From a virus (taxonomy: Duplodnaviria > Caudoviricetes), in IMG/VR virus record IMGVR_UViG_3300042508_000526: a stretch of DNA of 64,000 bases; one strand, 5' to 3'. Position numbers and translations under genes: made by a program. The notes under the pieces were generated by a model. The model searched no databases and was not told the origin of the DNA. It saw nothing but the letters and a program-made list of their open reading frames with translations. Below, piece by piece: positions 15,054 to 32,734 of this stretch; the stretch's first letter is position 1, and each line of letters starts with the position of its first letter.

Positions 15054-17039
15054 TCACGCAGTGGGTCGTAAAAGTTTCTGAGCCTGTGCAAACATGTGCG
15101 GATCTAACTGTGGCGGCATGGGCTTGGCCGGCGACGCTTTGAGCGCATTGCCGACAGCGCCGAGACCATAACCAGCCGCGCCCATCAGTCCGGCCGCACC
15201 CAGACCGAGGACCGTACGTTTGTTGGCGCTGCGCATCAGGTCTTTCAGGACCTTTGGTTTGTGCGTCACGCCGAGAATCTTTACGCCGTCATCCAGCAAC
15301 GTTGTGCTGGGCAGCGTGTCCGTGTGCGGAATCGGAGCTTTGCGGAGGCCCATGCCCTCCATCACCGCAGATGGCATCGAGCCACAGTGATTGCCCCAGC
15401 ACGTCGAACCGCCGGGTCCACGACCGCCGATGTAGGGCAGCTTTTGCGTCCACGGAAACCACCGCCGCAGCATGTTAATACCAGTGACTTCTTTCCCGCC
15501 GGCGCCTACCGCGTCTGTCGTGGCGTATGACTTGCCGACTTGCGCGCGGAGATTATTTGTTAACTTTTCTGGCGTGGCAGCAATTCCACGGTCATCAGGC
15601 CGGAACCATGTCGTGCCGCGTTCGCCGCCATAGGCGCTGCCGGGCATATCAGCCGGCCGGACACGCGAACCTTCGTTGACCAGATCGTGGTACACCGTGT
15701 CGGTCATGCCGCCATTGAACGTGGGATACAAGAACGAGTTGGGCGCTTTGCTCAGCGAACGCCGATCCGCCGCCATTTGCTTGGCGTTCTCACGCAGATA
15801 CTTGCGCAGCGTGCTCACACTGCTGCCGACGCCACTGCGATACGCTTCTTGCAGCGACTCAGGAAGCTTGGTTGCCATGGCCAGCAAGGGATCACTGGCC
15901 GAGCCCATCGCGCCGCCGTGATGCAACGACGGCACAAAGCGCTCGAACGCTCGCGGTTTAAATATGTTTGACCGCGGCATGGCGCCTGTGCGGGACGGCG
16001 CTTCCCGAGCAATGCGCTTGATCTCTTCCGCCAGCGCCCTAGACTTCGGCCCGCTGCGCTGCGCAAACTGTTCTGAGAGCGCCTGTAGTCTTTTTTGCGC
16101 GGCTAATCCAGCCTGATTGCCGCCTTGTAACTTACGAATCTCATCTAAGTTACTAGCAGTTTGAGCCTGCGGCGTGCCACCAAAGAATTCGCTGATGCCT
16201 TCTGCGCCCAGTAGCTGCTTCAGGTTGGTGACGCCGTCGGTCTTGGCGCGGCGCACACTCTTTAACTCACGCAGACTGGGCCGCTTGCCTTCTGGCTTGG
16301 GCACATCTTTGCCGGCTTGGCGTGCGGCATCATATGTTTCCCACGCTTTGCGGCGCGCGCTTAGCTCTCGGAACTCACGCGAGCGACCGCGAATGTGTTC
16401 CTTCATCAGGCCGTAGTCATAGATCTCGCCCGTGGTGCCCGGCGAGAATTCTCCATAACCCGCCACGAAATCTTTGTAGCCCTTTAGTTCAGCCTTCGTG
16501 GGTTTCTTAACTGTTGGTTTGACAGCCGCTTGGCCTTTGGACTTGGCTGCCTCGTAGTCAGCCCACGCTTTCTGGCGCGCCCGTAAGTCTTGCTGGCCAG
16601 AATACTCAGCCGCGAACTGCGGCCCGAAGGCTTCGCCGCGGCTATTAAATAACAATGGCAGATCGGGCGTTGTAGCTCCGGGCGCCATACGGGCAATGTC
16701 ATGCGGCGTGCGAATATTGGGCCCGACAATCTGGCCGTGCGCACCGGGACCGCCAGACGAGCTAGCCGAGCCCTCGATGAGAAAATCTACAAGAGGATTA
16801 CGCTCCGCACTGCGCTGCAAACCAGCCACGCCTACGTCGCCGGGCCGTAATGTCTTGAGCGCGGTGGCAATATCGACGTCGCCGTTCGCCAGCGTCCAGT
16901 CCGGCGCGTCTTGGATCATCTTTTTGTAGCGCGGCAGCGTACGGAACAGATATTCCAGCAGGCTCGCCGACGGAAGCGCAGCACCGGCAACCGCGCCAAC
17001 AGGACGTAGATCTACGCCATTATTATCGTCTGGGGGCAT
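15054..17039 (-). CDS. large protein with a split permuted papain-like (YaeF/YiiX-type NlpC/P60) domain
   Basis: LRPGDVG...AHGQIVG near the N-terminus; VGKSY...HCGSMPS near the C-terminus. Confidence 0.55.
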   Translation of the reverse strand: MPPDDNNGVDLRPVGAVAGAALPSASLLEYLFRTLPRYKKMIQDAPDWTLANGDVDIATALKTLRPGDVGVAGLQRSAERNPLVDFLIEGSASSSGGPGAHGQIVGPNIRTPHDIARMAPGATTPDLPLLFNSRGEAFGPQFAAEYSGQQDLRARQKAWADYEAAKSKGQAAVKPTVKKPTKAELKGYKDFVAGYGEFSPGTTGEIYDYGLMKEHIRGRSREFRELSARRKAWETYDAARQAGKDVPKPEGKRPSLRELKSVRRAKTDGVTNLKQLLGAEGISEFFGGTPQAQTASNLDEIRKLQGGNQAGLAAQKRLQALSEQFAQRSGPKSRALAEEIKRIAREAPSRTGAMPRSNIFKPRAFERFVPSLHHGGAMGSASDPLLAMATKLPESLQEAYRSGVGSSVSTLRKYLRENAKQMAADRRSLSKAPNSFLYPTFNGGMTDTVYHDLVNEGSRVRPADMPGSAYGGERGTTWFRPDDRGIAATPEKLTNNLRAQVGKSYATTDAVGAGGKEVTGINMLRRWFPWTQKLPYIGGRGPGGSTCWGNHCGSMPSAVMEGMGLRKAPIPHTDTLPSTTLLDDGVKILGVTHKPKVLKDLMRSANKRTVLGLGAAGLMGAAGYGLGAVGNALKASPAKPMPPQLDPHMFAQAQKLLRPTA

Positions 17040-17112
17040 GCGCGGCCTGCTTGTAAATATCTAAAGCGCCCATTGTAGAGAAGTTTATTCTACCCCAAAA
17101 GCGCCAATAGCT

Positions 17113-17161
17113 AAAAAAAAGCGCCGTGCTTGGGGTTACCCCCGAGCCGTGCGCCTTTTTT
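17113..17161. terminator. intrinsic terminator, possibly bidirectional
   Basis: GC-rich imperfect hairpin flanked by an A8 tract on the left and a T tract on the right. Confidence 0.65.
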
Positions 17162-17468
17162 ACTCAAGATCGACGAGCGCTGCCAGATTTTTAATCAGCG
17201 CGCGCAACACTTCGATCATCTTCTCGATCCGGGGCAGTTCGTCAGCGGGCACGAACTTTCGCAGATCTTCCACGGCCTGCAGCTGATTCTCGGTGAACGC
17301 GATTAACTCCTTGTTGGACACGGAGTTAAAGTTCTCACCGAAGATCTGCATATGAATGCTGTCCAGCCGGTCTACGATCGAGTCATACTCGGCCGTGGAC
17401 GCAGCGGGAGCAGCCGCAGGCGTGGGAGCGAAGAAATCACTGTCGAACTCGAAATCGAAGCTGACCAT
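17160..17468 (-). CDS. hypothetical acidic protein
   Basis: GGAGG RBS before MVSFDF; GC3-rich codons. Confidence 0.7.
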   Translation of the reverse strand: MVSFDFEFDSDFFAPTPAAAPAASTAEYDSIVDRLDSIHMQIFGENFNSVSNKELIAFTENQLQAVEDLRKFVPADELPRIEKMIEVLRALIKNLAALVDLE

Positions 17469-17505
17469 GTGGTCCTCCATGAATGCCGTCTCGAAAGGAA
17501 TAGCT

Positions 17506-17538
17506 AAAAAAAGGCGTGCACCCTTTCGGATGCACGCC
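17506..17538 (-). terminator. intrinsic terminator
   Basis: GGCGTGCA/TGCACGCC stem followed by T7 on the minus strand. Confidence 0.8.
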
Positions 17539-17593
17539 CCAAAACCTCACAACAAGTGATGTTTTTACGCCGCCAGAAATGGCGGCGTCAGGA

Positions 17594-18343
17594 TCACGAG
17601 ACGGCGACCGCGTTGACCACGGTGACCGGCTTCGACTGCTGGGTCTCGGCCTCGACCTGCGCTTCCGCCTCCGTCAGGCAGGTGGCGAGCAGCTCACGCC
17701 GCACGCCAGCCTGAAAGAACGCGTACGCCACTTCGGCCACGCAGCCAGCGGTCACGGCGCCGAAGAACACGGCGGTGATCTGCTGGACGAGCGTGCTGCC
17801 GCCGAGGCTGGCCGCGACACCGGCCATCGCACCACCGGAGAGCACACCGGCCACGACCGAGATACCGATCGTAGCGGCGGCCACCATGAGGTTGATGGCG
17901 ACGTTGTTCACGGCCACCCAGTCCACGTTCATGGAGCTGATCAGCTCCTTCACGTAGGACAGGGCCTCGCGGACCTTGCCGACCGCAGCCGTCGCCATCT
18001 GGCCGAGCCAGTTGACGACCGCCCGGACCGCATCAGCCGCGCTGGCGTAGATGCGGCCGAGGAACGTCCAGACACCGGACGCGATCGCCTTGAGGGCGCT
18101 GAACGCCTTCTCGGTGATCGTGTAGATGCCCTCGCCGATCCCACCCAGCACCGCCGCCGTGCCGTCATAGACGCGCACGAGCGGGCTGTTCGAGTGGACC
18201 GTCTCCTCGACGATCTGCTCGATGTCCTCCCGGGTGAGGGGCTTGGACTTGGTGCGCGTGCGAGTGGCCGAGGCCTTCTTCGTGGCCTTGACCCGACGGG
18301 CACCGATCTTCTCACGCATCGACATCTTGACCTTCGTTGTCAT
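17594..18343 (-). CDS. hypothetical membrane protein with basic N-terminus
   Basis: Lys/Arg-rich start, hydrophobic Gly/Ala helices, AGGAG RBS, strongly GC3-biased codons. Confidence 0.75.
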   Translation of the reverse strand: MTTKVKMSMREKIGARRVKATKKASATRTRTKSKPLTREDIEQIVEETVHSNSPLVRVYDGTAAVLGGIGEGIYTITEKAFSALKAIASGVWTFLGRIYASAADAVRAVVNWLGQMATAAVGKVREALSYVKELISSMNVDWVAVNNVAINLMVAAATIGISVVAGVLSGGAMAGVAASLGGSTLVQQITAVFFGAVTAGCVAEVAYAFFQAGVRRELLATCLTEAEAQVEAETQQSKPVTVVNAVAVS

Positions 18344-18435
18344 CTGAGCAACTCCTAGAACGTGGAAAGAAACCTAGTTACGCAGAAACCCATGTAACTC
18401 ATATGGGGACACGAATAACACATTCGCATCACTAG

Positions 18436-18463
18436 ATATACCCGGCTTTTGGCTTTTATTTAG
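18436..18463 (-). promoter_or_regulatory. phage promoter CTAAAT-N17-TATAT
   Basis: one of six exact-spacing copies. Confidence 0.75.
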
Positions 18464-18466
18464 ATA

Positions 18467-19549
18467 TCAGCCGTCATTCCGGGCTTTCACCACCATCTGC
18501 CCCTTCGCAGGCCACAATACCATCTGTTGCATTGTGTCCTCGTCAGTTACATCTTTCAGTAACTGCAGAGCTGTTACTGGACGCTGCGCGATCTCTTCCT
18601 TGCGCTTGTCATTGAGCTTGTCGCGCAGGACGAGCTTCAGCGCGTCATACCGCGGATACGTGTTCCATTCCCAGCCGTCCTCGTTGACCGGGTTGTACTC
18701 AGCGTACTTCCCAGACACGTAATGGTTGGTTTGCGCCATCGCATGTCGCTTGGTGCGAATGGTCGACGTATCCCCGACATGAGTTACAACAGTGTGTTCT
18801 TTGGACTTGGTACCGACCACGTGCGCAAAAAACGGCACCATGGTTTCGTAGTTACGCAAGCCGAGAACTAACCCGTTGTAACTTGGCAGCTGATCACACA
18901 CGGCTCTGACCCGCTGTAAGGCAGGCCATTTGAAGAGCAGTGTGGGAGCTGCCAGCCAACCAGACCAAGTGTTAAGCTTGTTAACAATTGGCGCCTGATT
19001 GACCGTGACTGCCCAGTTGTCAGCCATTGCAGATATCACGCCCACCATGCCAGCAACGCCCACAGATGTGTAGGACTTGTTGCCACGGTGAAAGCGCAAG
19101 ATCTTGGTGTGCCGGCCTGTACTGCGCGGCACCACCCAGTCCATGTTCCGGACCAGCAATGGCGTGTTATCAACCTCGAAGCTGATACTGGAGCACCCAC
19201 AACCGTACATCTCGGCAAGAGATGTAAAGTCGTAGATGAGGTTCCCCAGCATCAACTTACCCACAGGGACATCAGCGTGCTGGGCAATGCACGCCAGTTC
19301 CTGTGTGTACTCTTCACCAAATTGATTGACAACTTGGCGAAGTAACCAGCCGGTGCCGGAAGCCAAAGCATGCAGCGCGGTACAGAGCGTGCTGCCCAGA
19401 TATGGCTCCAGTTCTTCTGAGACGGCGGTTTCCACGTCGTCCAGAAGCTCAGCGATGGCTCCGGCTTCACGCTGCGCGAATGTCGCCCAGCGTGTGTCGG
19501 CCGGCTCGTCGAGGTCGATGTCATGAACCCGCCGAGGACTTGTAAACAT
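18467..19549 (-). CDS. acid ceramidase/NAAA-like Ntn hydrolase
   Basis: IDLDEPADTRW, G-CSSI nucleophile, VRNMDW, QTNHY. Confidence 0.8.
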   Translation of the reverse strand: MFTSPRRVHDIDLDEPADTRWATFAQREAGAIAELLDDVETAVSEELEPYLGSTLCTALHALASGTGWLLRQVVNQFGEEYTQELACIAQHADVPVGKLMLGNLIYDFTSLAEMYGCGCSSISFEVDNTPLLVRNMDWVVPRSTGRHTKILRFHRGNKSYTSVGVAGMVGVISAMADNWAVTVNQAPIVNKLNTWSGWLAAPTLLFKWPALQRVRAVCDQLPSYNGLVLGLRNYETMVPFFAHVVGTKSKEHTVVTHVGDTSTIRTKRHAMAQTNHYVSGKYAEYNPVNEDGWEWNTYPRYDALKLVLRDKLNDKRKEEIAQRPVTALQLLKDVTDEDTMQQMVLWPAKGQMVVKARNDG

Positions 19550-19554
19550 GATGT

Positions 19555-20109
19555 TTAATTCCTCGATGGTGACAAAGAACGGCAGGCATCCAGCCCATCG
19601 AGCAGGGCCTGCAGCTTGGTGTCCCGAACCTTGGCCTGTGCATCTCGCACTCTGTCAGCCGGGGTTTCGGGCAGCACGGGGCCGACGAGGCCACCATGCT
19701 TGTTGAGCACCAGCACCACCACCTCCACGGGCACCCAGCCGAAGACGTCGCCAGTGCCGTCTTCAGTGCCCATGTCGGAGTACGGCGCCAGCAGCGGCTC
19801 AGGCTGCGTGGGGAAACCGATCTCCACTGCGTTCCACGGGCCGGTGTCCCGGCGCGGGGAGCAGTAGTGACTCTGGCTGGCCTGCACCGACATGCTGAAG
19901 CCGTCTCGGCAGAGCATGGGCCGGCGCTGGTACAACCCGGACTCGGGCTTCCAGTACCGGACGTTGTTCATGTCGTTGAGGTACCCGTTCACCAGCGCCA
20001 GCGCGTTTTCGAGCTGCGCGATCTTGGCGAAGTGATACCCCATGACGACCAACATCGCCACGACAGCCGCGACCAGACCGGTGACCACGATGTTAACATC
20101 TGCGAACAT
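19555..20109 (-). CDS. conserved phage hypothetical protein with N-terminal membrane anchor
   Basis: CRDGFSMSVQASQSHYCSPR...VEIGFP...GWVPVEVV block. Confidence 0.7.
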   Translation of the reverse strand: MFADVNIVVTGLVAAVVAMLVVMGYHFAKIAQLENALALVNGYLNDMNNVRYWKPESGLYQRRPMLCRDGFSMSVQASQSHYCSPRRDTGPWNAVEIGFPTQPEPLLAPYSDMGTEDGTGDVFGWVPVEVVVLVLNKHGGLVGPVLPETPADRVRDAQAKVRDTKLQALLDGLDACRSLSPSRN

Positions 20110-20236: not shown

Positions 20237-22462
20237 TCAGGAGGCGGCCGCAACTCCAGCCCCTGCGCCACCCACAGCAGCCGCTCCGCCAGCCCCATAG
20301 GCCAAGCGTTTCCCGGCCGGCACCATCGGCGACGCGACCGTCATGCCATACTGGAGCATGGGCTTGTACACATACTTGCCAACCGCGGGCATAACGCCGG
20401 ATTCATGCGGCTTGTACACCATGCTGTGATCCGCGGCCGACAGCCCTTGCAGCCGGCGCGGTGAAAGCTGGAACTCCACGGGTGTCTGGCCCAGCGTGCC
20501 CTTGATGTTCCAGCCGTGATAGCCCGGGCGCTGGAGCATTTGCGATTTACTTATGTTTACGCCGGCCTCTGTCAGCTGCTTCGTTAAGCTATCAATGACA
20601 GGTTGGTCATAACCGCCCTGCGATGTGAGCCGAAAGCCCAGCAGGTCATTGGTTATTGTGTCGCCGTGGCCAGCAATACTTTGCGGTGTCTTTACCCGGC
20701 CGGCATACACTTGGAACCCTTTGGGCTGAAATGACTTCAAGAACTCATTGCCGGCCTGTAACGCCTGCTCACGTTCTTTCTGGAAAACGCCTTGGGGCAC
20801 ATTGTCGCCCAGCGTTGTCATGGGGCCACGAAATGCGCTTCGAGCTGCGCCCACAGCCTTCGAGATACCCTTGAGACCAATGCGCCGGCCGAACTCCATG
20901 AGATTCGCCGACTTTTCTTTTTCGTCGGGCCAGCCGGGTTGCAACTGGTATTCGTACACGGGCTCGCCATGCAGCAGTTGTTTCTTGGCGAGGGCTGGAA
21001 CTTTGCCGACCATAGCGCCGGACGGATCGGGTTGCAGGCGATAGCGTTCCTGCAGCCATTGTTTTTTGTATTCCGGATCTGTTTTGGCCAGCCGCATGAA
21101 CCCCTGTGTCTGCACAAAGTTTTCGATATCTTTGGGCGCAAGGGAAACATTATGTAATCTCTCGGGCGGCACGCTCAGGGGCGTAATCTTGTAGTGTGTG
21201 CCTTCTTCTAACTGGCGCTTGTGTGTCCGCTCCGCCAGATGTTTACGCAGCCGGTCGAGAACTTCCTGCTGTTTCTTCTTGTTCCCGGGAATGATGGCGC
21301 GCGCTTCCCCTGTCCGGGCATTGTTGTAGGCCAGTCCGGGGTGCTGCAGCTCATCAAGAATCTGGTGTAAAGACTTGCGCAGGTTCACGCCCTGCACATT
21401 GCCCTCAAAGCTGTACACGGCAGACTGCTTGCCGAACTCATAGGCGCTGGAGCATTTGCAGTTCCACTTGCGCAGAGATTTGTTAATGCGCGAGTCAGGA
21501 TCTTTGGCCGTGCTGGCGCCAGTGTTAACTCGACGCATGCCGCACATACGGGAGCAGAAAGAATTCTGGCGCTTGGCCCGGTCGCCCTTGGGGTTACTTT
21601 CGGTCACAGGGGCTTTTAAGTTCCCGCCGTGCTCCCGTTCGTAGCTCTTGCGCCCCTTCTCGTTGAGGCCGCCAGCTTCGTTTTTGCCCTCGCTGCGCTG
21701 CCATGCCGGAGTTGACGATATCTTTTCGCTGCTATTGGCGGTCCCAAAAGACGCATTGCCGTTAATATCGCCGCTGGACGAGATAGCCCCATAAGAATTA
21801 ATGGGATTGGCGTTGGGAGAGCTACCGCCGCCTACTGGAGGAAGCTGCCCGGATTGCCCTTGGGCGCTCGCTTGGCCGCCAGCAGGGGCCGCCGGGGCTG
21901 CAGGAGCCTGTGCCATACCCATTGGGGGCGGCGTCGCGGCAGCTGGCATGGCGTATCGTTTAATTCCACTGTTCATCGGCTGTAACTGGGCGTTTCGGGC
22001 CTCCTGTTCAGCCTTTTCATTCTCGATCGCCTGCATAATCGGCTGGGACAAGACGACCGAAAGCTTTTTAAACAAGCTATTTTCCGCTTTTTCCGGCATT
22101 TTTTCGCAGATATGGTTTTCCCCCACGGTTTCTGCCGGCTGGACGGGTTTTTCACCTGCCGCCATGGGTTTATCACTCTGGGGGAGCGTAACTTTAACCG
22201 TTGTAGACTCGGCTTTCTTGCAAATTTGGCTGTAAATACTTACCGCTAATGACTTTGCAGAAAAATCCCAGTTGTTTGGCACCATGGCTGTTTTCTTATT
22301 TGTATCGTCGTCGCTGGACTCTGGCTTTTTGTCTTCTTGAGCCTTGTCAGAGACGTACAGAGGGAGCTTTTTAGGCTTCGGATACTCATGCGCCCAGCGT
22401 TTGGCAATATCTGGGTGCGCAGCCCAGAGAAACCGTCGCTGTTTTTCTGAGCGAAAGGGCAT
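20237..22462 (-). CDS. modular polyprotein-like: MPFxS motif + DUF6321-like + acylphosphatase-like + RelA/SpoT synthetase-like
   Basis: AWQRSEGKNEAGGLN; FEGNVQGVNLR; GRVKTPQSI, DLLGFR, GYHG, VEFQL, DHSMVYKP. Confidence 0.8.
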   Translation of the reverse strand: MPFRSEKQRRFLWAAHPDIAKRWAHEYPKPKKLPLYVSDKAQEDKKPESSDDDTNKKTAMVPNNWDFSAKSLAVSIYSQICKKAESTTVKVTLPQSDKPMAAGEKPVQPAETVGENHICEKMPEKAENSLFKKLSVVLSQPIMQAIENEKAEQEARNAQLQPMNSGIKRYAMPAAATPPPMGMAQAPAAPAAPAGGQASAQGQSGQLPPVGGGSSPNANPINSYGAISSSGDINGNASFGTANSSEKISSTPAWQRSEGKNEAGGLNEKGRKSYEREHGGNLKAPVTESNPKGDRAKRQNSFCSRMCGMRRVNTGASTAKDPDSRINKSLRKWNCKCSSAYEFGKQSAVYSFEGNVQGVNLRKSLHQILDELQHPGLAYNNARTGEARAIIPGNKKKQQEVLDRLRKHLAERTHKRQLEEGTHYKITPLSVPPERLHNVSLAPKDIENFVQTQGFMRLAKTDPEYKKQWLQERYRLQPDPSGAMVGKVPALAKKQLLHGEPVYEYQLQPGWPDEKEKSANLMEFGRRIGLKGISKAVGAARSAFRGPMTTLGDNVPQGVFQKEREQALQAGNEFLKSFQPKGFQVYAGRVKTPQSIAGHGDTITNDLLGFRLTSQGGYDQPVIDSLTKQLTEAGVNISKSQMLQRPGYHGWNIKGTLGQTPVEFQLSPRRLQGLSAADHSMVYKPHESGVMPAVGKYVYKPMLQYGMTVASPMVPAGKRLAYGAGGAAAVGGAGAGVAAAS

Positions 22463-22586
22463 GGCGAAGCTCGTATGTCAGGCGCTGCTGTTTCCCAAGC
22501 TGAATACGCTTATTGTGGCATATGAAACGTGGGAAGAAAAGGGCATGCTATACTGGCGCGCTGGGGAGTTACAAAAGGAGGCCGCC

Positions 22587-22916
22587 ATGCACGCGCTCAA
22601 GACGAGTTTTATTTCGCTGGCGTTGATTCTGTGGGCTGGGGAAGCCTACGCAGAAACCTTAGAGATGTTTTCGGCTGACTGGTGTAAATACTGTCAGCAG
22701 GCGAAAGCAGATTTACTGCCTGAAGATGCGCTGGTGGATAAATACCGGCTGGAAATCATCGACGTGGACCGGGCCAAGGAACTCGCCAAAGATAACAATA
22801 TCAAAACCCTGCCCACGTTTATCCTGCGCGATGACGAGGGGAAAGAAATTGCCCGCCAGACCGGATATCACGGCCTGCGAAAGTTTAAACGCTGGCTAGA
22901 AAATCACACCCGCTAA
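22587..22916 (+). CDS. thioredoxin-like protein with signal peptide
   Basis: AAGGAGG RBS; WCKYC and LPTF (cis-Pro) motifs; the only convincing plus-strand gene. Confidence 0.85.
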   Translation: MHALKTSFISLALILWAGEAYAETLEMFSADWCKYCQQAKADLLPEDALVDKYRLEIIDVDRAKELAKDNNIKTLPTFILRDDEGKEIARQTGYHGLRKFKRWLENHTR

Positions 22917-22976
22917 AATGGCAGGCCGCAAAGCTTTGTGCCAATTAGGCAGTGCTGTCTTGGAGCGCTGATATCT

Positions 22977-23005
22977 AAAAAAAGAGGGTACGGTGTATAC
23001 CCTCT
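22977..23005 (-). terminator. intrinsic terminator
   Basis: AGAGGGTA/TACCCTCT 8-bp stem plus T7. Confidence 0.8.
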
Positions 23006-23581
23006 CCGCGTTAACGTACGCGTTCCACGGGCCTATCTCTGACTCATCGTCAGTTGGGACCACCCATGCGTTTTCTCTAGAGGTTCTGCACCTCTAGCTA
23101 CCGCTTGGACATTACATCCGCGCGCTTCTACCAGTGAGGTTGCCCATACCCAAACCTCACCAGTTCTAGCGGCACAACACGACGTGCATAACACTCGTGC
23201 CACACCCTGTGCTAGATTCGATTGGCCAACGCAAAACCGCATGGCTCTACACCGTAAGAAACGGAACAAGAAAAATTAGAAACCACCTGCTTTAGACTTT
23301 CTTGCGAAAGCTATCACATGGCGTTTCTCCCGATTGGAGCAGCGCGCCAATCACGCGTCACTGTGCGTAGTTGCAGAGTGAAAATAAGTGCGATGTAGAT
23401 TTCTCCGGCATTACGGAGACCGCTACAACACGGCTTGGTACTGCGACCAACTTTACTGCTGCACTGAACAGCGCTGTCTGTATGATTTCCTCGGGGATAT
23501 ACGAGGACCGCATACTCGGCCAAGCACTCCGGCTTGCTTTACCGTGGACAGGCATTGCACGATTGATAGGTATTCCCCATC
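23006..23581 (-). ncRNA. large structured ncRNA candidate 1 (about 575 nt, ROOL-like size)
   Basis: own promoter and terminator, no credible ORF, more than 12 hairpins, repeated internal-loop module, 5'-3' long-range pairings. Confidence 0.7.
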
Positions 23582-23586
23582 ACTAG

Positions 23587-23614
23587 ATATACCCGGTTTT
23601 TGCCCGATATTTAG
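23587..23614 (-). promoter_or_regulatory. phage promoter CTAAAT-N17-TATAT
   Basis: motif copy directly upstream of ncRNA candidate 1. Confidence 0.75.
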
Positions 23615-23679
23615 CTGGGCCCTGATAGCTAAAGAAAGCTTGCGCTTTGCGGAGCCGTCGCCTCCGCTGCCGACATGCT

Positions 23680-24063
23680 TTAGCTCGCCGTGAGCCGCTC
23701 GAAGATCGCGAGGACCTCCGGCATCTTGGTGTTGACGATTTCCTTGATTTCGTCATTCACCGCGACTTGAATCGGACCGGCGTTCTCAACCCACTTCTGC
23801 CCGACACCGGCGGCGAAGAAGTCGGCCAGCGCGGCCATCTCTTCGTCGGTGAAGTTTTCACGCAGGTGGCGCGCCATTACGGGCGCGAACGTGTCGATCG
23901 TGAAGACCTCCAGAAAGGCGGCCTTCATTGACTCGACCATCTGGGCTGGCAACAAGCCATTGCCCATGTTTTCGATCATGTTCTTCACCATCGTGTCGAA
24001 CATGTCACCGGCACTGATCACCGCCAGAAGCCGATCAACCGACGTCGCAGTTTCCATCGTCAT
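23680..24063 (-). CDS. DUF2059-like protein
   Basis: LRENFTDEEMAALADFFAAGVGQKW. Confidence 0.7.
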   Translation of the reverse strand: MTMETATSVDRLLAVISAGDMFDTMVKNMIENMGNGLLPAQMVESMKAAFLEVFTIDTFAPVMARHLRENFTDEEMAALADFFAAGVGQKWVENAGPIQVAVNDEIKEIVNTKMPEVLAIFERLTAS

Positions 24064-24174
24064 TTCTCCGTGAAAGCAGGAGTAACCACAGCTTCAGCAT
24101 GCAACGCGCATGTGAACTCCAACCGGGTTACCGTGAGAGCGCCGCAGGGCAAGCCTACAGCATATCGACATCGC

Positions 24175-24396
24175 TCAGTTCCGGCCGTCCCACTCGAAGG
24201 TAGCTTCGAGCGGATTGGCTGCCGGACGAACCTTCCGCGGTTTGCGCGAAGGCTTGGGGGCTGGCTTGGACGCCGGTGGTGGCGGCGGCTCAGACCAGCG
24301 CTGCGCTAGATCCACATACTCGGAATACTGCTGAGACGCAGCACCAATCCAATAAAGAACCGCGCAGGCAACCACGATCCAGACGAACGCTGACAT
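24175..24396 (-). CDS. small membrane-anchored Pro-rich protein
   Basis: N-terminal helix, PPPPP linker. Confidence 0.6.
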   Translation of the reverse strand: MSAFVWIVVACAVLYWIGAASQQYSEYVDLAQRWSEPPPPPASKPAPKPSRKPRKVRPAANPLEATFEWDGRN

Positions 24397-24476
24397 ATTT
24401 GCACCTTTCTCATGGGGTGTCCTTCATACAGGTTACTGGGGCGTAATATTTATGGCTTACGCCCATCGTTCACCTA

Positions 24477-24504
24477 ATATGCCCGCGTTCTGGCGCAAAT
24501 TTAG
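24477..24504 (-). promoter_or_regulatory. phage promoter CTAAAT-N17-CATAT
   Basis: motif copy followed by the GGGCGTAA/TTACGCCC hairpin. Confidence 0.75.
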
Positions 24505-24617
24505 AGCGTCAAAAAGATGATCAGGTCGAGGTCGTCTTCGTCCTCGTAGTCCCAATCTTCGCTCCCACGAGCGGAACGGGGCGGAATGGCGCAGGGCTGG
24601 CTCGTTGTCGCTGGCAT
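24501..24617 (-). CDS. 38-aa acidic peptide (MPATTSQP...DEDDLDLIIFLTL)
   Basis: translated manually; GGAGG RBS; below the ORF-track cutoff. Confidence 0.55.
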   Translation of the reverse strand: MPATTSQPCAIPPRSARGSEDWDYEDEDDLDLIIFLTL

Positions 24618-24688
24618 GGTCTAGCCTCCGGATTTAGATATTTGGACCGAAGGGCTATTTTACAAACCAGCCTGCTCCAGATTGTTAT

Positions 24689-24716
24689 CTAAATCGGCTA
24701 CAGGCACCGGCGATAT
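24689..24716 (+). promoter_or_regulatory. plus-strand near-match promoter CTAAAT-N17-GATAT
   Basis: same spacing; points into the palindrome pair. Confidence 0.4.
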
Positions 24717-24722
24717 ACGCAA

Positions 24723-24810
24723 TTTGACGTAAGTGTTTGCAACACAAAGACTTACGTCAAAAAGGTATTCCGGTTTGACGTAACATGTTGCGGCACAAGG
24801 ACTTAGCGCT
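24723..24810. repeat. pair of related palindromic elements (TTTGACGTAAGT-N15-ACTTACGTCAAA and a degenerate copy 51 bp downstream)
   Basis: 12-bp inverted repeat plus direct repeat. Confidence 0.7.
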
Positions 24811-24817
24811 AATAGCT

Positions 24818-24843
24818 AAAAAAAGCGGCGCCGAAGCCCGCTC
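24818..24843 (-). terminator. intrinsic terminator
   Basis: GCGG...CTTCGG...CCGC hairpin plus T7. Confidence 0.7.
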
Positions 24844-24844
24844 G

Positions 24845-25605
24845 TGTCCGGTTTCATCACATGGTCGGATTCCACGCCACTGGGACAGACTAATGCGCTA
24901 GCCCGCCCGGTGGTGTTATATGCGCTTAAGGGCAACAGCAAGTAAGTGCGCAGTTACTTGTCGGCAGCAACGATGCGCATACCGCACCGCCTATGCTGTT
25001 GGGTCAGCCACTCACACCCATAGGGTCTTCTATGGGTGGAGCCTTTGAGGCCGCTGACCAGAACCTTCGCATTGCCGAAGCGAACGCGTCTAGGTTGTTA
25101 ACACAAGCAACGCCCACGGAGCAGGTACTACTACCCGCCTTGACCCCGTGATCCGTTTATTAGGCTACGTATACCATTGGGCTCAACTTATTAACGCTGA
25201 TCAGGCGTTAGTTTGTCGGGCTATTGATATACCGCAGGACTTTCACCTGCACCCCCCGCTCTCCTAAGTACTTTTTTATGAGCACAGTCGAGGAAGGAAC
25301 GCTCGTTTGCACACCATAGCACTCGCTTGTATGGCTTAACAGGGCGCTACCCCCGTGCAAACTCCATTGCCTTAACGCCTACCCCCACGAAATTCAACCA
25401 CCAAGGTTGCTCCCCATCCCTTGCGGAATGGGCCTCAGTGTGCGTGCACCCAGAGATTAGTTCATCTCACACGCTTCCGTAGGCGCTGCTTGTGTTAACA
25501 ACGCTAATAAATCCGACGCATTGCCATATTTCCACGTTACGCGTCGGACGTACATGGGGCCGGGCTTCGACCCCAGCGGACTGATGCTCACCCAGTTCGT
25601 GTAAA
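24845..25605 (-). ncRNA. large structured ncRNA candidate 2 (about 760 nt, GOLLD-like size and context)
   Basis: 27-bp long-range helix 25476-25502/25094-25120, multibranch domains, GCAA and TGAAAGT loops, terminator at the 3' end. Confidence 0.72.
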
Positions 25606-25610
25606 ACTCC

Positions 25611-25802
25611 TTAGTTACGATTGACGTGAATGATAAACCCCTCGCCGAACGGTAGACGAAAAGCAGGGTCTGCAATAATCTTGCCATTGACCTCGACTCT
25701 TTCCTCGACGATTAGCCGCCGAGCAATGTGCTCGTCGACAGGCGTTTTGGAAAAAGGACCTACCTCGACCAGATAGTCTACGAGTGTTTGTTCTTTGGCC
25801 AT
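25611..25802 (-). CDS. stand-alone S4 RNA-binding domain protein
   Basis: LVDYLVEVG...IARRLIVEERVEVNGKIIADP. Confidence 0.75.
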   Translation of the reverse strand: MAKEQTLVDYLVEVGPFSKTPVDEHIARRLIVEERVEVNGKIIADPAFRLPFGEGFIIHVNRN

Positions 25803-25851
25803 TTGAAACTCCTTGTGGTTGTTTAACTAACGTCCCAACCGTGCACACAAT

Positions 25852-25879
25852 ATATGCCAGCATTTGACCGGTTATTTAG
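25852..25879 (-). promoter_or_regulatory. phage promoter CTAAAT-N17-CATAT
   Basis: motif copy upstream of the S4 gene and ncRNA candidate 2. Confidence 0.75.
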
Positions 25880-29140: not shown

Positions 29141-29146
29141 GGCGAG

Positions 29147-29494
29147 TGGAGCCGGCGGGAATCGAACCCGCGTCCAGAGATGTCTCCAATAAAGACGTCT
29201 ACATGCGTAGGTTGTTGCTACTTGCGCTACAACCAAAGCCAGCCGATTATCGGCGTCAGGTGGGTTACCACCATCTTTGCGTGTCTTTCCACGCCGCCTG
29301 CTGTCTTCCCAGCGGCCAACCTGATTGGGCGATGAGGCTCAGGTCGCCTCACCCGATCACTGCGTCAAGCAGCGAGAGCGGGAGCGCTGTTGAGGGCGCC
29401 AACTAACAATGTGGGCGATTTTTAACGTGGCCCTTCGTCCAACCACGGCATGCAGTCTAGATCTTCCTCATCCTGTCGAAACCAGTACGGCCCC
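29147..29494 (-). ncRNA. ssrA: tmRNA, tag peptide (A)GALNSAPALAA
   Basis: 5' GGGGCCGTACTGGTTTCGAC, 3' GGGTTCGATTCCCGCCGGCTCCA; tag ORF 29365-29400 ending LAA-stop. Confidence 0.95.
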
Positions 29495-29500
29495 TAAATT

Positions 29501-29689
29501 TCACGCAACTGCGCTGGGCAGTGGCGTTACTTCGTAGGCGCGGCCATAAAAATAGCCGTGCCAAAAGTCGTCAACGTGTTTGTCTTGCAACAGCGCATTC
29601 TGATCCGCAACTGTTGCAGCCTCTTCCTTGTTTAGTTTCAACACGCGGCAGTTGTTGCCGAGAGTTTCCGCATACACAAGCGGTGTCAT
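29501..29689 (-). CDS. hypothetical protein
   Basis: 62 aa, AAGGGA RBS. Confidence 0.5.
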   Translation of the reverse strand: MTPLVYAETLGNNCRVLKLNKEEAATVADQNALLQDKHVDDFWHGYFYGRAYEVTPLPSAVA

Positions 29690-29775
29690 TTCGTTTCCCT
29701 TTTGTGAAAAATGAAACCAGCACGGCCACAATTGTATTAGAAACTCACCGCAAAACGTTGAGTTTCCAATATGAA

Positions 29776-29849
29776 TAACCCGGGTGGGAGTCGAACCCAC
29801 AACAAGTAGATCCTAAGTCTACCGCCTCTGCCAATTGGGCTACCGAGTC
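29776..29849 (-). tRNA. tRNA-Leu(TAG), short variable loop
   Basis: cloverleaf, anticodon loop CTTAGGA, GGTTCGACTCC T-arm; no encoded CCA. Confidence 0.9.
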
Positions 29850-29922
29850 ATTAAATGTGGCTGGTTGAGAAGGCAACCATTTAACCAAGCCCAACACCTT
29901 GCGAATGCGTTGGCACCACACA

Positions 29923-29994
29923 TGACCCCACGGGGATTCGAACCCCGATTATCGCCGTGAAAGGGCGGTGTCCTAACCATTAGACGATGGGGCC
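29923..29994 (-). tRNA. tRNA-Glu(TTC)
   Basis: canonical cloverleaf, loop CTTTCAC. Confidence 0.95.
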
Positions 29995-29998
29995 GCGG

Positions 29999-30160
29999 TC
30001 AGGCAAGTCCAACATACTCTGCTTTGCGCCAGAAGTACATTGGCATGCCGATTTGCATATGCCCGTCGCGGACGCGTGTATCCAGCGGGGCATTGTTCGA
30101 ATTTGCCCACGCAATGATACTCGTCACCGCATCGTCGCTCTGCACTGTTCTGTAAAGCAT
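29999..30160 (-). CDS. 53-aa hypothetical protein (MLYRTVQSDD...)
   Basis: translated manually; GGAG RBS. Confidence 0.5.
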   Translation of the reverse strand: MLYRTVQSDDAVTSIIAWANSNNAPLDTRVRDGHMQIGMPMYFWRKAEYVGLA

Positions 30161-30196
30161 TGGTACACTCCATTGTTATCAGAACACAAATCACAG

Positions 30197-30267
30197 TAGC
30201 CCGCCGAGGAGTCGAACCCCGCGTTGCGAGTTAATAAGACTCGCTTGCCAACCGGTTTCCGCGGGCC
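30197..30267 (-). tRNA. atypical tRNA or tRNA-like element, anticodon TAT (Ile)
   Basis: acceptor stem and T-arm intact; anticodon loop CTTATTA; non-canonical D region, G8 and U37. Confidence 0.6.
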
Positions 30268-30353
30268 GGAACGAGCGGGTGCCGGAAGCTTGGGCTTCTC
30301 CCGGCACCCGCCCTACCAGACGCGACGCGCTTTAGCGTTTCGCGGCCAGTGTG

Positions 30354-30689
30354 CTATCGGTAGCGCTTGCAGGCGAACCAGCGGCCATTTGAGCCGCGTG
30401 CTACGCCTTGGTCAACTACCCGCATACCAGACCGAGAAAAGCAACAGTTACCCAACGCGGCTTCGGGAGTGCTCCCGCTGCCGACGCCTTCGTAACCGCT
30501 GTTGCCGCCGAAGTGGCGGCACTGCCCGCATCGAGCCTGCATCTCCGCAACGCCCTGCGCAGTCGCGTTGGTAGGCTGATAGTATCGCATCGGTTGATGC
30601 GACGTGTAGCTCTCGATGATGACAGGTCCGTCAGCGCAGGCAATCCCAGCAAGCACTGACAGCACAGAAAAAACACAGACGCGAATCAT
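30354..30689 (-). CDS. secreted Cys-rich protein
   Basis: signal peptide; GYEGVG...ALGNCC...DQGVARGSNGRWFACKRY. Confidence 0.75.
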   Translation of the reverse strand: MIRVCVFSVLSVLAGIACADGPVIIESYTSHQPMRYYQPTNATAQGVAEMQARCGQCRHFGGNSGYEGVGSGSTPEAALGNCCFSRSGMRVVDQGVARGSNGRWFACKRYR

Positions 30690-30760
30690 AGATCCTCCGT
30701 GAAGAGCTGCAGGTGCGCGCAGCCCAAAAAGATCAGCCCCGCACCGGGCTTTCTGACACT

Positions 30761-31213
30761 TCAGCAGCCAGCCGGCTGCAGCACGCGGCCTTTGATGACG
30801 CGGCTGCCCGGTTTCCGGCCGGTGTTACGCACCTTATGCGCAACGCCCATCCGAATCAACCGGTTGGCCCGGGCGGCGGTGAAGATGTAGTTGTTACCGA
30901 TCATCCTGTTGGGGAGGAACGGGTTACGGTCCAGTCCCTTGTTCCCATGGCGACGCGACTCATGCGCCTCCAAGAACTTTTCGGCCGCCGCTGCGCGAAG
31001 CCCGTAAAAACGGTTCATGGTCAAGGGGCGCAAACCCAACAACTCACGACCGAAGTTAATACGAGCCCGAATCTCACGCATTGAGATCGAGCAGCTGCAG
31101 AGCCACGGATCGTTCTTTGCCACGATGGTCTCCTTATCATCCCTGATGTACAGCCGCACAGCGACTGTGTCCACTGAACAGCAAGTTACACCGTGTAACC
31201 TGCTTGCAGCCAA
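30761..31213 (-). CDS. basic hypothetical protein
   Basis: ORF track; start uncertain. Confidence 0.5.
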   Translation of the reverse strand: MAASRLHGVTCCSVDTVAVRLYIRDDKETIVAKNDPWLCSCSISMREIRARINFGRELLGLRPLTMNRFYGLRAAAAEKFLEAHESRRHGNKGLDRNPFLPNRMIGNNYIFTAARANRLIRMGVAHKVRNTGRKPGSRVIKGRVLQPAGC

Positions 31214-31226
31214 ACGCTAGCTGCAA

Positions 31227-31299
31227 TGGCCGCGGGGGGACTCGAACCCCCGCCCTCCTGCGTGTAAAGCAGGCGCTCTACCAACTGAGCTACGCGGCT
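31227..31299 (-). tRNA. tRNA-Val(TAC)
   Basis: canonical arms, loop TTTACAC; A1-C72 mismatch. Confidence 0.92.
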
Positions 31300-31307
31300 A
31301 CCGTACG

Positions 31308-31676
31308 CTATTCAGCGTCGGGTTTGATGGCGTCGAGCATGTCAACGATCTGCCGCATGTACCCACGCGGCGGAAGCGGTACCCAGCTTTTTGCGCGTTC
31401 TGGGTCGTACGGTCGCCAATATGGCGCATCGTCAGCGTCCACCACACCCCAATCGTTGTTAACAAACTTGTTGTGGTTGATGGCGTCGACAAGCCGTTGC
31501 GGCATATCTTCGTACACGAGTTGCCCGTCTGGGCCCTCGTAGCAGCACTGCGTTTGCACCGTGCTGTCGAATTTACCGATGTGGATTCCGATATTCGGAC
31601 CGAAGTAATAAACCATTTGGTTTTCTTCTGGCAGCCGATCGATACACCGAATCCATCCGTCGTTGTCCGCACTCAT
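31308..31676 (-). CDS. DUF551-like phage protein
   Basis: GWIRCIDRLPEENQMV...WRP. Confidence 0.65.
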   Translation of the reverse strand: MSADNDGWIRCIDRLPEENQMVYYFGPNIGIHIGKFDSTVQTQCCYEGPDGQLVYEDMPQRLVDAINHNKFVNNDWGVVDADDAPYWRPYDPERAKSWVPLPPRGYMRQIVDMLDAIKPDAE

Positions 31677-31954
31677 TCGTCTTCTTCCTCGTCGGGCGGG
31701 AACATGGCGTTCCAGCAGGTGTTGCAGATGCCGGACAGAAGAAACTCACGCTCGCTAGCGGGCAAGTACGGGAAACAATCCTGCACGTAATTGCCCGCTT
31801 CGAACCGCGCGTAGTCCTGCGGCTTGACGGTCACAGAGACCACCGTACCGCAGGAATAGCATGGACCCTCAATGAGGATCTGCTGCTCGCCACCATCGGT
31901 TACCTCTTCCGTGGTGCAGTTCCCGCGGAAGACGTACTTTGTTATCAAAGCCAT
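31673..31954 (-). CDS. Zn-ribbon phage protein
   Basis: CYSC...QDCFPYLPASEREFLLSGICNTCW. Confidence 0.7.
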   Translation of the reverse strand: MALITKYVFRGNCTTEEVTDGGEQQILIEGPCYSCGTVVSVTVKPQDYARFEAGNYVQDCFPYLPASEREFLLSGICNTCWNAMFPPDEEEDE

Positions 31955-31984
31955 TGAGCACCTCCCGTGAAAAAAAAAACACAA

Positions 31985-32057
31985 TAGGAGCGGTGGGACT
32001 CGAACCCACACTTGAAGAATTTTAAGTCCTTTGCCTCTGCCTTTGGGCTACACTCCC
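31985..32057 (-). tRNA. tRNA-Leu(TAA), short variable loop
   Basis: cloverleaf, loop CTTAAAA. Confidence 0.9.
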
Positions 32058-32099
32058 ACATCTGTAAGAAAAACGATGCGAATTTCTTACAGAATTAAC

Positions 32100-32375
32100 T
32101 CAGGCGTCGTCGTTGTAGTCTGCCAGCCGACGACCAGCTTTTTCGGCGGAACCGCTGTGCGCTTTCAGAAGCCCGCGCGCATCGACAGCGCGGTCGATGT
32201 AGCGGAAACACGTTTCCAACCGCAAAAACCGCGGGTAGGACTTGCGCTCCGCAAACCGGTCCAGCGCGCCACGCAAATCCTCGATGTACCGGTCAATTGC
32301 GCCGTCGTAGAATTCGGCCAACTTTTCCAGTTCATCCTTTTCGACCTCAGCGGACGACGGGCTGTTGCTCGACAT
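32100..32375 (-). CDS. hypothetical protein
   Basis: ORF track, helical. Confidence 0.55.
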   Translation of the reverse strand: MSSNSPSSAEVEKDELEKLAEFYDGAIDRYIEDLRGALDRFAERKSYPRFLRLETCFRYIDRAVDARGLLKAHSGSAEKAGRRLADYNDDA

Positions 32376-32616
32376 ACGCTAACCTTTCTTGTTGGGCGTT
32401 AGGGGTCCAGATGTAACGCTGCTCACCCACTTGGCACCACCAGCGTTGGCCGTCATGCCAGTAGATAGGCGTTGTTGCCGCGGACGGCGGCTGCAACGCT
32501 GTAGGTGTCGGGTGCGCATGTCGATACTCCGTGTAGCTCTGCCACAGCAGAGCAACCAACATGAACACCGCAGTGAGCAACCCGATGATATTCCCTTTGA
32601 TCTCAATCCCCTTCAT
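32347..32616 (-). CDS. membrane-anchored hypothetical protein
   Basis: N-terminal helix; AGGAGG RBS. Confidence 0.6.
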   Translation of the reverse strand: MKGIEIKGNIIGLLTAVFMLVALLWQSYTEYRHAHPTPTALQPPSAATTPIYWHDGQRWWCQVGEQRYIWTPNAQQERLAYVEQQPVVR

Positions 32617-32660
32617 TTCAAACCTCCTTGTTTAGAAATGAAAATCATTCAATCGACCAG

Positions 32661-32734
32661 TGCCCCCTCTAGGATTCGAACCTAGGACCAACGGATTAAA
32701 AGTCCGATGCTCTAACCAGCTGAGCTAAGGGGGC
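32661..32734 (-). tRNA. tRNA-Lys(TTT)
   Basis: canonical cloverleaf, loop CTTTTAA. Confidence 0.95.

Follow-up and report, generated by a model that had tools for sequence, protein, structure and literature searches.

A promoter-to-terminator cassette of a freshwater jumbo phage as a candidate source of a large, orphan non-coding RNA

The ROOL RNAs (rumen-originating, ornate, large) constitute a widespread family, whose conserved secondary structure with multiple pseudoknots has covariation support. The structures of both ROOL and GOLLD RNAs have been solved, their function is to our knowledge unknown, and every class of this kind that we know of was found by covariation across many homologs. 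ROOL RNAs measure about 600 nt and GOLLD RNAs more than 800 nt; they occur in phages and prophages, often near tRNA islands, and both form RNA-only nanocages by means of kissing loops and A-minor contacts (bioRxiv 10.1101/2024.12.08.627333). Here we describe an interval of a phage genome which resembles these RNAs in kind only, that is in size, phage origin, lake habitat and a loose proximity to tRNA genes, and which we regard as a credible candidate for a new and large non-coding RNA of phages, albeit an orphan one.

In detail, the candidate shares with ROOL a length of ~580–600 nt, the character of a stand-alone transcript of a phage or prophage, tRNA genes nearby, hairpins and GNRA-type loops. 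The size, phage origin and tRNA island typical of ROOL are thus found here as well (~604 nt), but these features are non-specific; no sequence is shared with ROOL, and the candidate has so far been found in a single phage species. Like GOLLD it is phage-borne, stems from lake metagenomes and lies near a tRNA island, whereas GOLLD members are often longer than 800 nt and have a conserved 3' domain, and the candidate gives no match to the GOLLD model of Rfam. As a purely functional analogy, RNAs that sequester or scaffold proteins by repeated binding hairpins may be named, such as the CsrB/RsmZ type, 6S and OLE, which are likewise stand-alone terminated transcripts whose repeated modules show identical unpaired sequence. 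Compared with the CsrB/RsmZ type, however, the candidate has just two repeats, and these are internal loops and not GGA hairpin loops.

The source is a freshwater jumbo phage of a clade with genomes of ~200 kb. The record that holds the candidate is a virus genome of 203,206 bp with direct terminal repeats which is rated 100% complete, and the sequence of this phage recurs in ~20 lake-water metagenome runs from 2020–2025. The window, by which we mean the whole stretch of 64,000 nucleotides that was analysed, corresponds to bases 112270–176269 of this record. It contains tail and virion genes, a tmRNA and five tRNAs, and nearly all of its genes are borne by the minus strand. The features of the locus are collected in Table 1.

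An earlier note, made from the sequence alone, had read the minus strand of the interval as an autonomous gene for a structured non-coding RNA, and this core reading held in every test that could be run. Indeed, the interval is framed by a promoter and a terminator of its own and most likely yields a highly folded non-coding RNA of ~600 nt. The proposed promoter (23587–23614, minus strand) proved to be a recurrent element, which is found in 5–7 copies in the genome and on the minus strand exclusively, against ~0.06 copies per genome that we would expect by chance. The further copies, at 18463, 20233, 24504 and other positions, each precede a gene or an ORF-free stretch, and the motif is kept in at least nine related phages of ~200 kb (relatives L003–L022), where it lies ahead of small cassettes. 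Since a generic sigma-70 scan found no promoter at the upstream edge of the candidate, where the conserved CTAAAT motif is located, the latter is assigned to a phage-specific promoter class. The transcript probably starts 7–10 nt past the promoter, near 23580. At the other end, the suspected terminator was confirmed as a GC-rich stem followed by a U7 tract.

One ORF of the genome is multisubunit RNA polymerase beta-like; outside the window, a 1487-aa ORF (G000:C1:97879–98928) matches RNA polymerase Rpb2 domain 6 with an E-value of 6e-55. No convincing match to sigma-70 region 2 or 4 was found in the phage genome. Judged from these sequence comparisons, the phage's own polymerase may read its CTAAAT-N14-GGGYATAT promoters. 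On the downstream side of the locus, a thioredoxin gene (22461–22916, plus strand, JGI call) and a 741-aa gene (22462–20237, minus strand) lie back to back with an overlapping CATG start; as the two starts overlap (22460–22463), the promoter of each must sit within the other gene.

Table 1. Features of the candidate RNA locus and its surroundings (positions in the window unless preceded by the name of another contig)
Feature	Position	Strand	Basis or remark
Promoter CTAAAT-N14-GGGTATAT	23614-23587	minus	Motif recurrence in genome and relatives
Predicted non-coding transcript, ~604 nt	23580-22975	minus	No coding signal; folding
Intrinsic terminator	23007-22974	minus	9-11-bp GC-rich stem (23007-22981) and U7
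Twin hairpin 1: outer stem GUAUG/CAUAC, internal loop CGGU/AAAU, inner stem CCUCG/CGAGG, 8-nt loop	23515-23480	minus	Probability 0.99
Twin hairpin 2: outer stem UGUAG/CUACA, internal loop CGGU/AAAU, inner stem CUCCG/CGGAG, 6-nt loop	23427-23394	minus	
Arm with CUUUC-GCAA-GAAAG cap (GNRA tetraloop 23305-23302)	23328-23278	minus	Pair probability 0.83-1.00
22-bp irregular G-U-rich hairpin, this strand only	23216-23165	minus	Probability 0.90-0.95
11-bp hairpin GUGAGGU/ACCUCAC, 13-nt loop	23164-23130	minus	Probability 0.96
8-bp hairpin CUAGAGGU/ACCUCUAG, GCAGA GNRA-like pentaloop (23089-23085)	23097-23077	minus	Probability 1.00
ORFs of 65-78 aa	23358-23555, 23314-23523, 23033-23269	minus	ORF listing
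Upstream boundary: DUF2059 terminator ending TTTAGCTATCAG	23669-23622	minus	8 nt ahead of RNA promoter
Downstream junction motif TTTAGATATCAGCGCT	22979-22964	minus	Repeats motif at 23633-23622
Copies of 48-nt terminator/junction element	23622-23669; L114:3005-3052; L115:381-428; L116:1970-2021; L117:827-878		
tmRNA and five tRNAs	29144-32734		6-9 kb from RNA candidate; Rfam, ARAGORN

The strongest internal evidence for a structured RNA is a pair of twin hairpins, which are present exactly as they had been written down from the sequence. The twin loops are maintained: all eight of the eight internal-loop bases are identical, as are the closing pairs adjoining the loop, while the stems and terminal loops differ. 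In an alignment of the two hairpins based on a covariance model, the outer stems differ by one base pair that is lost on both strands (a paired 1-bp indel); in the inner stems two pairs are swapped with compensation, and no pair is broken. As these differences amount to two double substitutions and one paired indel, there are fewer independent compensations than a naive count of columns would give. A covariance model of hairpin 1 alone recovers hairpin 2 with a score of 18.8 bits and an E-value of 0.018 over the 64-kb window. A descriptor scan for an identical loop occurring twice within 200 nt found one place only in the 203-kb genome and none in 20 Markov-shuffled strand-genomes, and no comparable 4x4 twin was found in ~1 Mb of other phage loci. 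The conserved part of the twins is asymmetric and not a palindromic half-site, which argues for selection on an RNA fold and not for a protein site in duplex DNA. Nevertheless, the twins could stem from a recent local duplication instead of representing two selected sites. The CGGU/AAAU loop matches no motif that we can name; K-turn, sarcin-ricin/loop E, 11-nt tetraloop receptor and UAA/GAN identities were considered and rejected, by inspection only.

The interval as a whole folds better than chance and in a strand-specific manner, without being the most extreme of its genome. Folding of the minus strand gives a minimum free energy (MFE) between -234 and -238 kcal/mol and, relative to dinucleotide shuffles, a z value of -5.9 to -6.2; the plus strand reaches -202 kcal/mol and a z value of -4.1. 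As controls, 11 coding windows of equal length were folded, and their z values, from +1.2 to -5.0, were all less extreme than that of the candidate, the lowest being that of a collagen-repeat gene. In a GC-corrected regression over all 600-nt windows of the genome, the candidate lies ~2 sd below expectation and ranks ~15th of ~317, and some coding regions outscore it. The MFE structure contains 24 G-U pairs, with five of them in one 12-bp helix; as helices that depend on G-U pairs are impossible on the opposite strand, this favours an RNA with the sequence of the minus strand.

According to the partition function, ~13 local helices have pair probabilities above 0.9. Among the local elements that had been noticed beforehand, the GCAA hairpin and two 8-bp stems are present (8–11 bp) with pair probabilities of at least 0.96. 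The predicted long-range pairs are poorly determined. A long-range CCAUGCG/CGCAUGG helix had also been proposed; its sequences are there, and forcing it costs +5.5 kcal/mol relative to the MFE structure, so that this part of the earlier note was not borne out. Of the proposed pseudoknot, the CCUAUC/GAUAGG helix is included in the MFE structure; the crossing UCCACGG/CCGUGGA helix, when forced, lies +3.9 kcal/mol above it. Crossed perfect end helices of 7 and 6 bp occur in ~2% of shuffles, a suggestive figure from a test that was made post hoc; beyond such weak statistics, pseudoknot and long-range helix find no support. The "ornate" multi-branch architecture is as yet an unverified prediction from a single sequence.

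As regards expression, a search of metatranscriptomes had been suggested as a check. In the freshwater metatranscriptome X20 a single adapter-flanked insert of 139 nt was found inside the RNA (23017–23155, depth 3.4), which is the sole fragment from 22000–25000. This data set is kept as contigs, which are strandless and compatible with DNA carry-over and whose gaps in coverage do not mean silence; the fragment therefore lends weak support to transcription of the candidate.

The locus is part of an array of similar units, in each of which the promoter comes first, the terminator is followed by TTTAGCTATCAG(CGCT), and the next promoter begins a few bases on. The junction repeated in this clade consists of a terminator U-tract plus AGCTATCAGCGC with a CTAAAT promoter shortly after (22964–22979, 23622–23633, L111:1130–1600 and L011:4860–5470). 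The 48-nt terminator/junction element is 94–98% identical where the flanking genes are 72–77% identical, and thus outranks the surrounding coding sequence in conservation. In the contigs L111 and L113 and in run X19, an extra promoter, small gene and terminator are found exactly after the downstream junction motif, the RNA being at least 99.3% identical to that of the window despite the additional cassette. Gain and loss of cassettes at this sequence motif suggest a recombination-driven shuffling.

The slot of the RNA is itself variable. In L011 the RNA is missing, and the DUF2059 terminator lies directly next to the convergent thioredoxin gene; in L114–L117 a 109-aa gene fills the slot, and in L006, L016, L004, L007 and L009 it is taken by other small genes. 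As the RNA is absent or replaced between the same flanks and the units vary among strains, the cassette is moron-like, that is accessory, self-expressed and exchangeable. As in phage morons, it has a promoter and a terminator of its own and is inserted between genes that are adjacent in relatives. In contrast to classical morons, which encode proteins, its cargo appears to be RNA, and the cassettes of this array are joined by a conserved terminator-promoter junction.

Other stretches of these genomes deserve mention in their own right. In two relatives, ORF-free and strongly folding stretches extend from a small Cys-rich ORF to a terminator (L004:4336–4852 and L016:4178–4542, z -3.8 and -6.5, respectively); they are unrelated in sequence to the candidate, and this phage clade may carry large structured RNAs repeatedly. 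The longest stretch of the genome without an ORF of at least 90 aa (24064–25853, 1.79 kb) includes a small S4-domain gene at 25611–25802; some of its windows surpass the candidate in folding, with GC-corrected z values of -2.1 to -3.4, and it is another candidate for a large RNA. The best-folding minus-strand windows of the 64 kb are found at 17000–19800 (GC-corrected z to -4.5) despite ORFs of 360 and 249 aa, the former of which is called in a relative, too.

The collection of homologs, which had been proposed as a further check, was carried out and returned none outside the same phage species. A blastn search with settings for distant matches against 50,697 GenBank phages found no homolog of the RNA. 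With nhmmer (including --max, E<=50), only the promoter was matched in 80 IMG/VR loci around the 741-aa gene. By BLAST the RNA is absent from five complete relatives of ~200 kb (for G004/L011 by BLAST alone), and a covariance model of the twin hairpins gave nothing credible in four complete relatives and 42 loci. A pattern scan of IMG/VR for the core of the twin hairpins yielded 16 matches, which is about the number expected by chance, and none of the 16 showed outer-stem pairing. In summary, no relatives of the RNA beyond its own phage species were found in GenBank phages, IMG/VR, JGI metagenome contigs or GTDB genomes, and no RNA of such kind in jumbo phages was found described in the literature.

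Within the species, strain contigs were reached by way of the flanking DUF2059 and thioredoxin proteins. These are at least 99.3% identical within the RNA, and therefore no covariation can be obtained from them. Over the 604 nt the strains show two SNPs, namely U>C at position 19 and C>U at position 493, both of which are unpaired in the MFE structure, position 493 (23088) belonging to the GCAGA loop; the DNA metagenome runs show one SNP inside the RNA. For the neighbours the counts are five SNPs within the DUF2059 gene (384 nt) and 17 over 685 nt towards thioredoxin. The low count in the RNA is consistent with constraint, the difference from the neighbours being statistically not significant. 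Contig L108 was rejected as a 90% relative, as its divergence is mainly one 33-nt deletion and it spans just the first ~40 nt of the RNA.

We consider it probable, on balance of these observations, that the interval encodes a genuine functional structured RNA. The alternative that survives best is that it is a non-functional filler, namely a decayed or recently acquired cassette which is perhaps transcribed and whose fold and twins are by-products of base composition and duplication. The orphan status, a location in a hot spot of cassette turnover and a distance of only ~2 sd from the genomic fold background would all agree with this. On the other hand, compensated stems surround an invariant 8-nt loop, the z value against shuffles is about -6, promoter and terminator are both strong and intact, and the SNP density is not above that of the neighbouring genes. 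Moreover, neither remnants of an earlier reading frame nor any similarity to cassette proteins were seen. Taken together, we regard such a filler as an unlikely explanation, if one to be taken seriously.

A much lower probability is given to an element acting at the DNA level, be it an origin, a recombination site, a packaging site or an insulator before the convergent thioredoxin gene. The position between convergent genes, the recombination-active junction repeats and the abundance of inverted repeats would suit an element of this type, but the twins conserve an asymmetric loop and not palindromic half-sites, the strand-specific G-U helices are RNA-like, and there is a dedicated promoter. 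Moreover, in relatives an 80-nt terminator alone insulates the same junction, so that 600 nt would be unneeded.

The interval is non-coding by all available measures, and the statement of the earlier note that it has no credible ORF is upheld. The longest minus-strand ORFs comprise 65, 69 and 78 aa, those of the plus strand 71 and 101 aa, and their translations are Cys/Arg-rich and of low complexity. Codon log-odds, for which 75 ORFs of at least 300 aa served as the training set, are 0.24+-0.10 per codon for real genes and 0.32–0.44 for the two flanking genes, compared with -0.38 to +0.01 for the minus-strand ORFs within the transcript and -0.52 to +0.13 for all ORFs overlapping the interval. 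None of the interval ORFs is preceded by an AAGGAG-type Shine-Dalgarno sequence as found on the cassette genes of relatives, and on L109, L111 and L112, which are the three strain contigs extending across the interval, the JGI gene callers placed no gene in it. Six-frame peptides of the interval showed no similarity to ~1 Mb of related loci, and when IMG/VR, JGI metagenome contigs and GTDB genome contigs were searched with degenerate probes for the two longest ORFs, no relative appeared. A conserved protein-coding frame, which had been named as the observation that would speak against the RNA, is thus not indicated by a coding signal or by relatives of the ORFs. At 23317–23334 (minus strand), inside the RNA, a GGGAG with a 7-nt spacer is followed by AUG and then UGA; this start-stop mini-ORF with its Shine-Dalgarno-like site is probably due to chance. 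A coding function for one or more small proteins of 65–78 aa could be argued from the mere presence of ORFs on the minus strand and from the small proteins encoded by the neighbouring cassettes of relatives, but with codon scores (-0.25 to 0.01) below those of real genes, no fitting ribosome-binding site, an odd amino acid composition, no relatives in three collections and no call by the JGI pipelines, it is very improbable, and we regard a protein-coding explanation of the interval as close to excluded.

Known RNA families were searched with the 4227 models of Rfam 15, using the whole window at gathering score and, in addition, 22700–23900 on both strands at E<=10 with permissive filters. With cmscan no match to ROOL, GOLLD, OLE or any other family was obtained at gathering score, and the best matches at E<=10 (NrrF with 13.6 bits and E 8.9, sR47 and SOX2OT) are noise. 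The membership in ROOL hinted at in the earlier note thus found no support, as no ROOL match appeared at either threshold. ARAGORN and Rfam detected no tRNA or tmRNA within 22977–23590. That the candidate is a diverged member of ROOL, GOLLD or a similar family of large phage RNAs which the Rfam models missed would agree with its length of ~600 nt, with its occurrence in a phage of lake water and with a tRNA/tmRNA island 6–9 kb away, but in view of the empty search of the 1.2-kb region on both strands it is the least probable of all the explanations considered.

The best explanation, which we favour by a small degree, is an autonomous accessory cassette, an "RNA moron", of a freshwater jumbo phage that makes a folded non-coding RNA. 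In this model, a phage-specific promoter would drive a transcript of ~600 nt that stops at a strong intrinsic terminator, stays untranslated and works as a folded RNA. The two identical CGGU/AAAU loops might then serve as paired docking sites. They could receive two copies or a dimer of an RNA-binding protein of host or phage, which would be sequestered or scaffolded by the RNA. Alternatively, they could receive the RNA's own GCAA and GCAGA loops, leading to compaction or multimerisation; this self-docking would explain why two identical receptors are found alongside two similar GCA(N)A loops. The specific docking mechanism is put forward tentatively. The longest complementarity of the candidate to transcripts of the phage in antisense is 12–14 nt in the 203-kb genome, which is the level of chance; since no extended complementarity exists, the candidate is unlikely to regulate phage genes by classical base pairing. 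The accessory and strain-variable nature of the cassette makes a role in host takeover or counter-defence more likely than one in core replication.

A bolder view, which we consider rather doubtful in its entirety, is that the clade trades cassettes at a conserved junction, some of them with RNA as cargo, and that the candidate represents a new class of self-organising RNA. Its twin loops would act as receptors that take up either its two GCA(N)A loops or a dimeric protein, and it would form a particle, compact or multimeric, similar in kind to those of ROOL and GOLLD while being evolutionarily unrelated to them.

If the proposed reading is true, large structured RNAs would also exist as strain-specific orphans that are invisible to covariation pipelines, and they would be mobile, moving in promoter-to-terminator cassettes through the accessory regions of jumbo phage genomes. 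RNA would thereby join the cargo that is used for host takeover or counter-defence, and the natural strains with and without neighbouring cassettes would offer a genetic handle on it. The twin-loop module would provide a small and directly mutable feature by which binding or assembly can be addressed.
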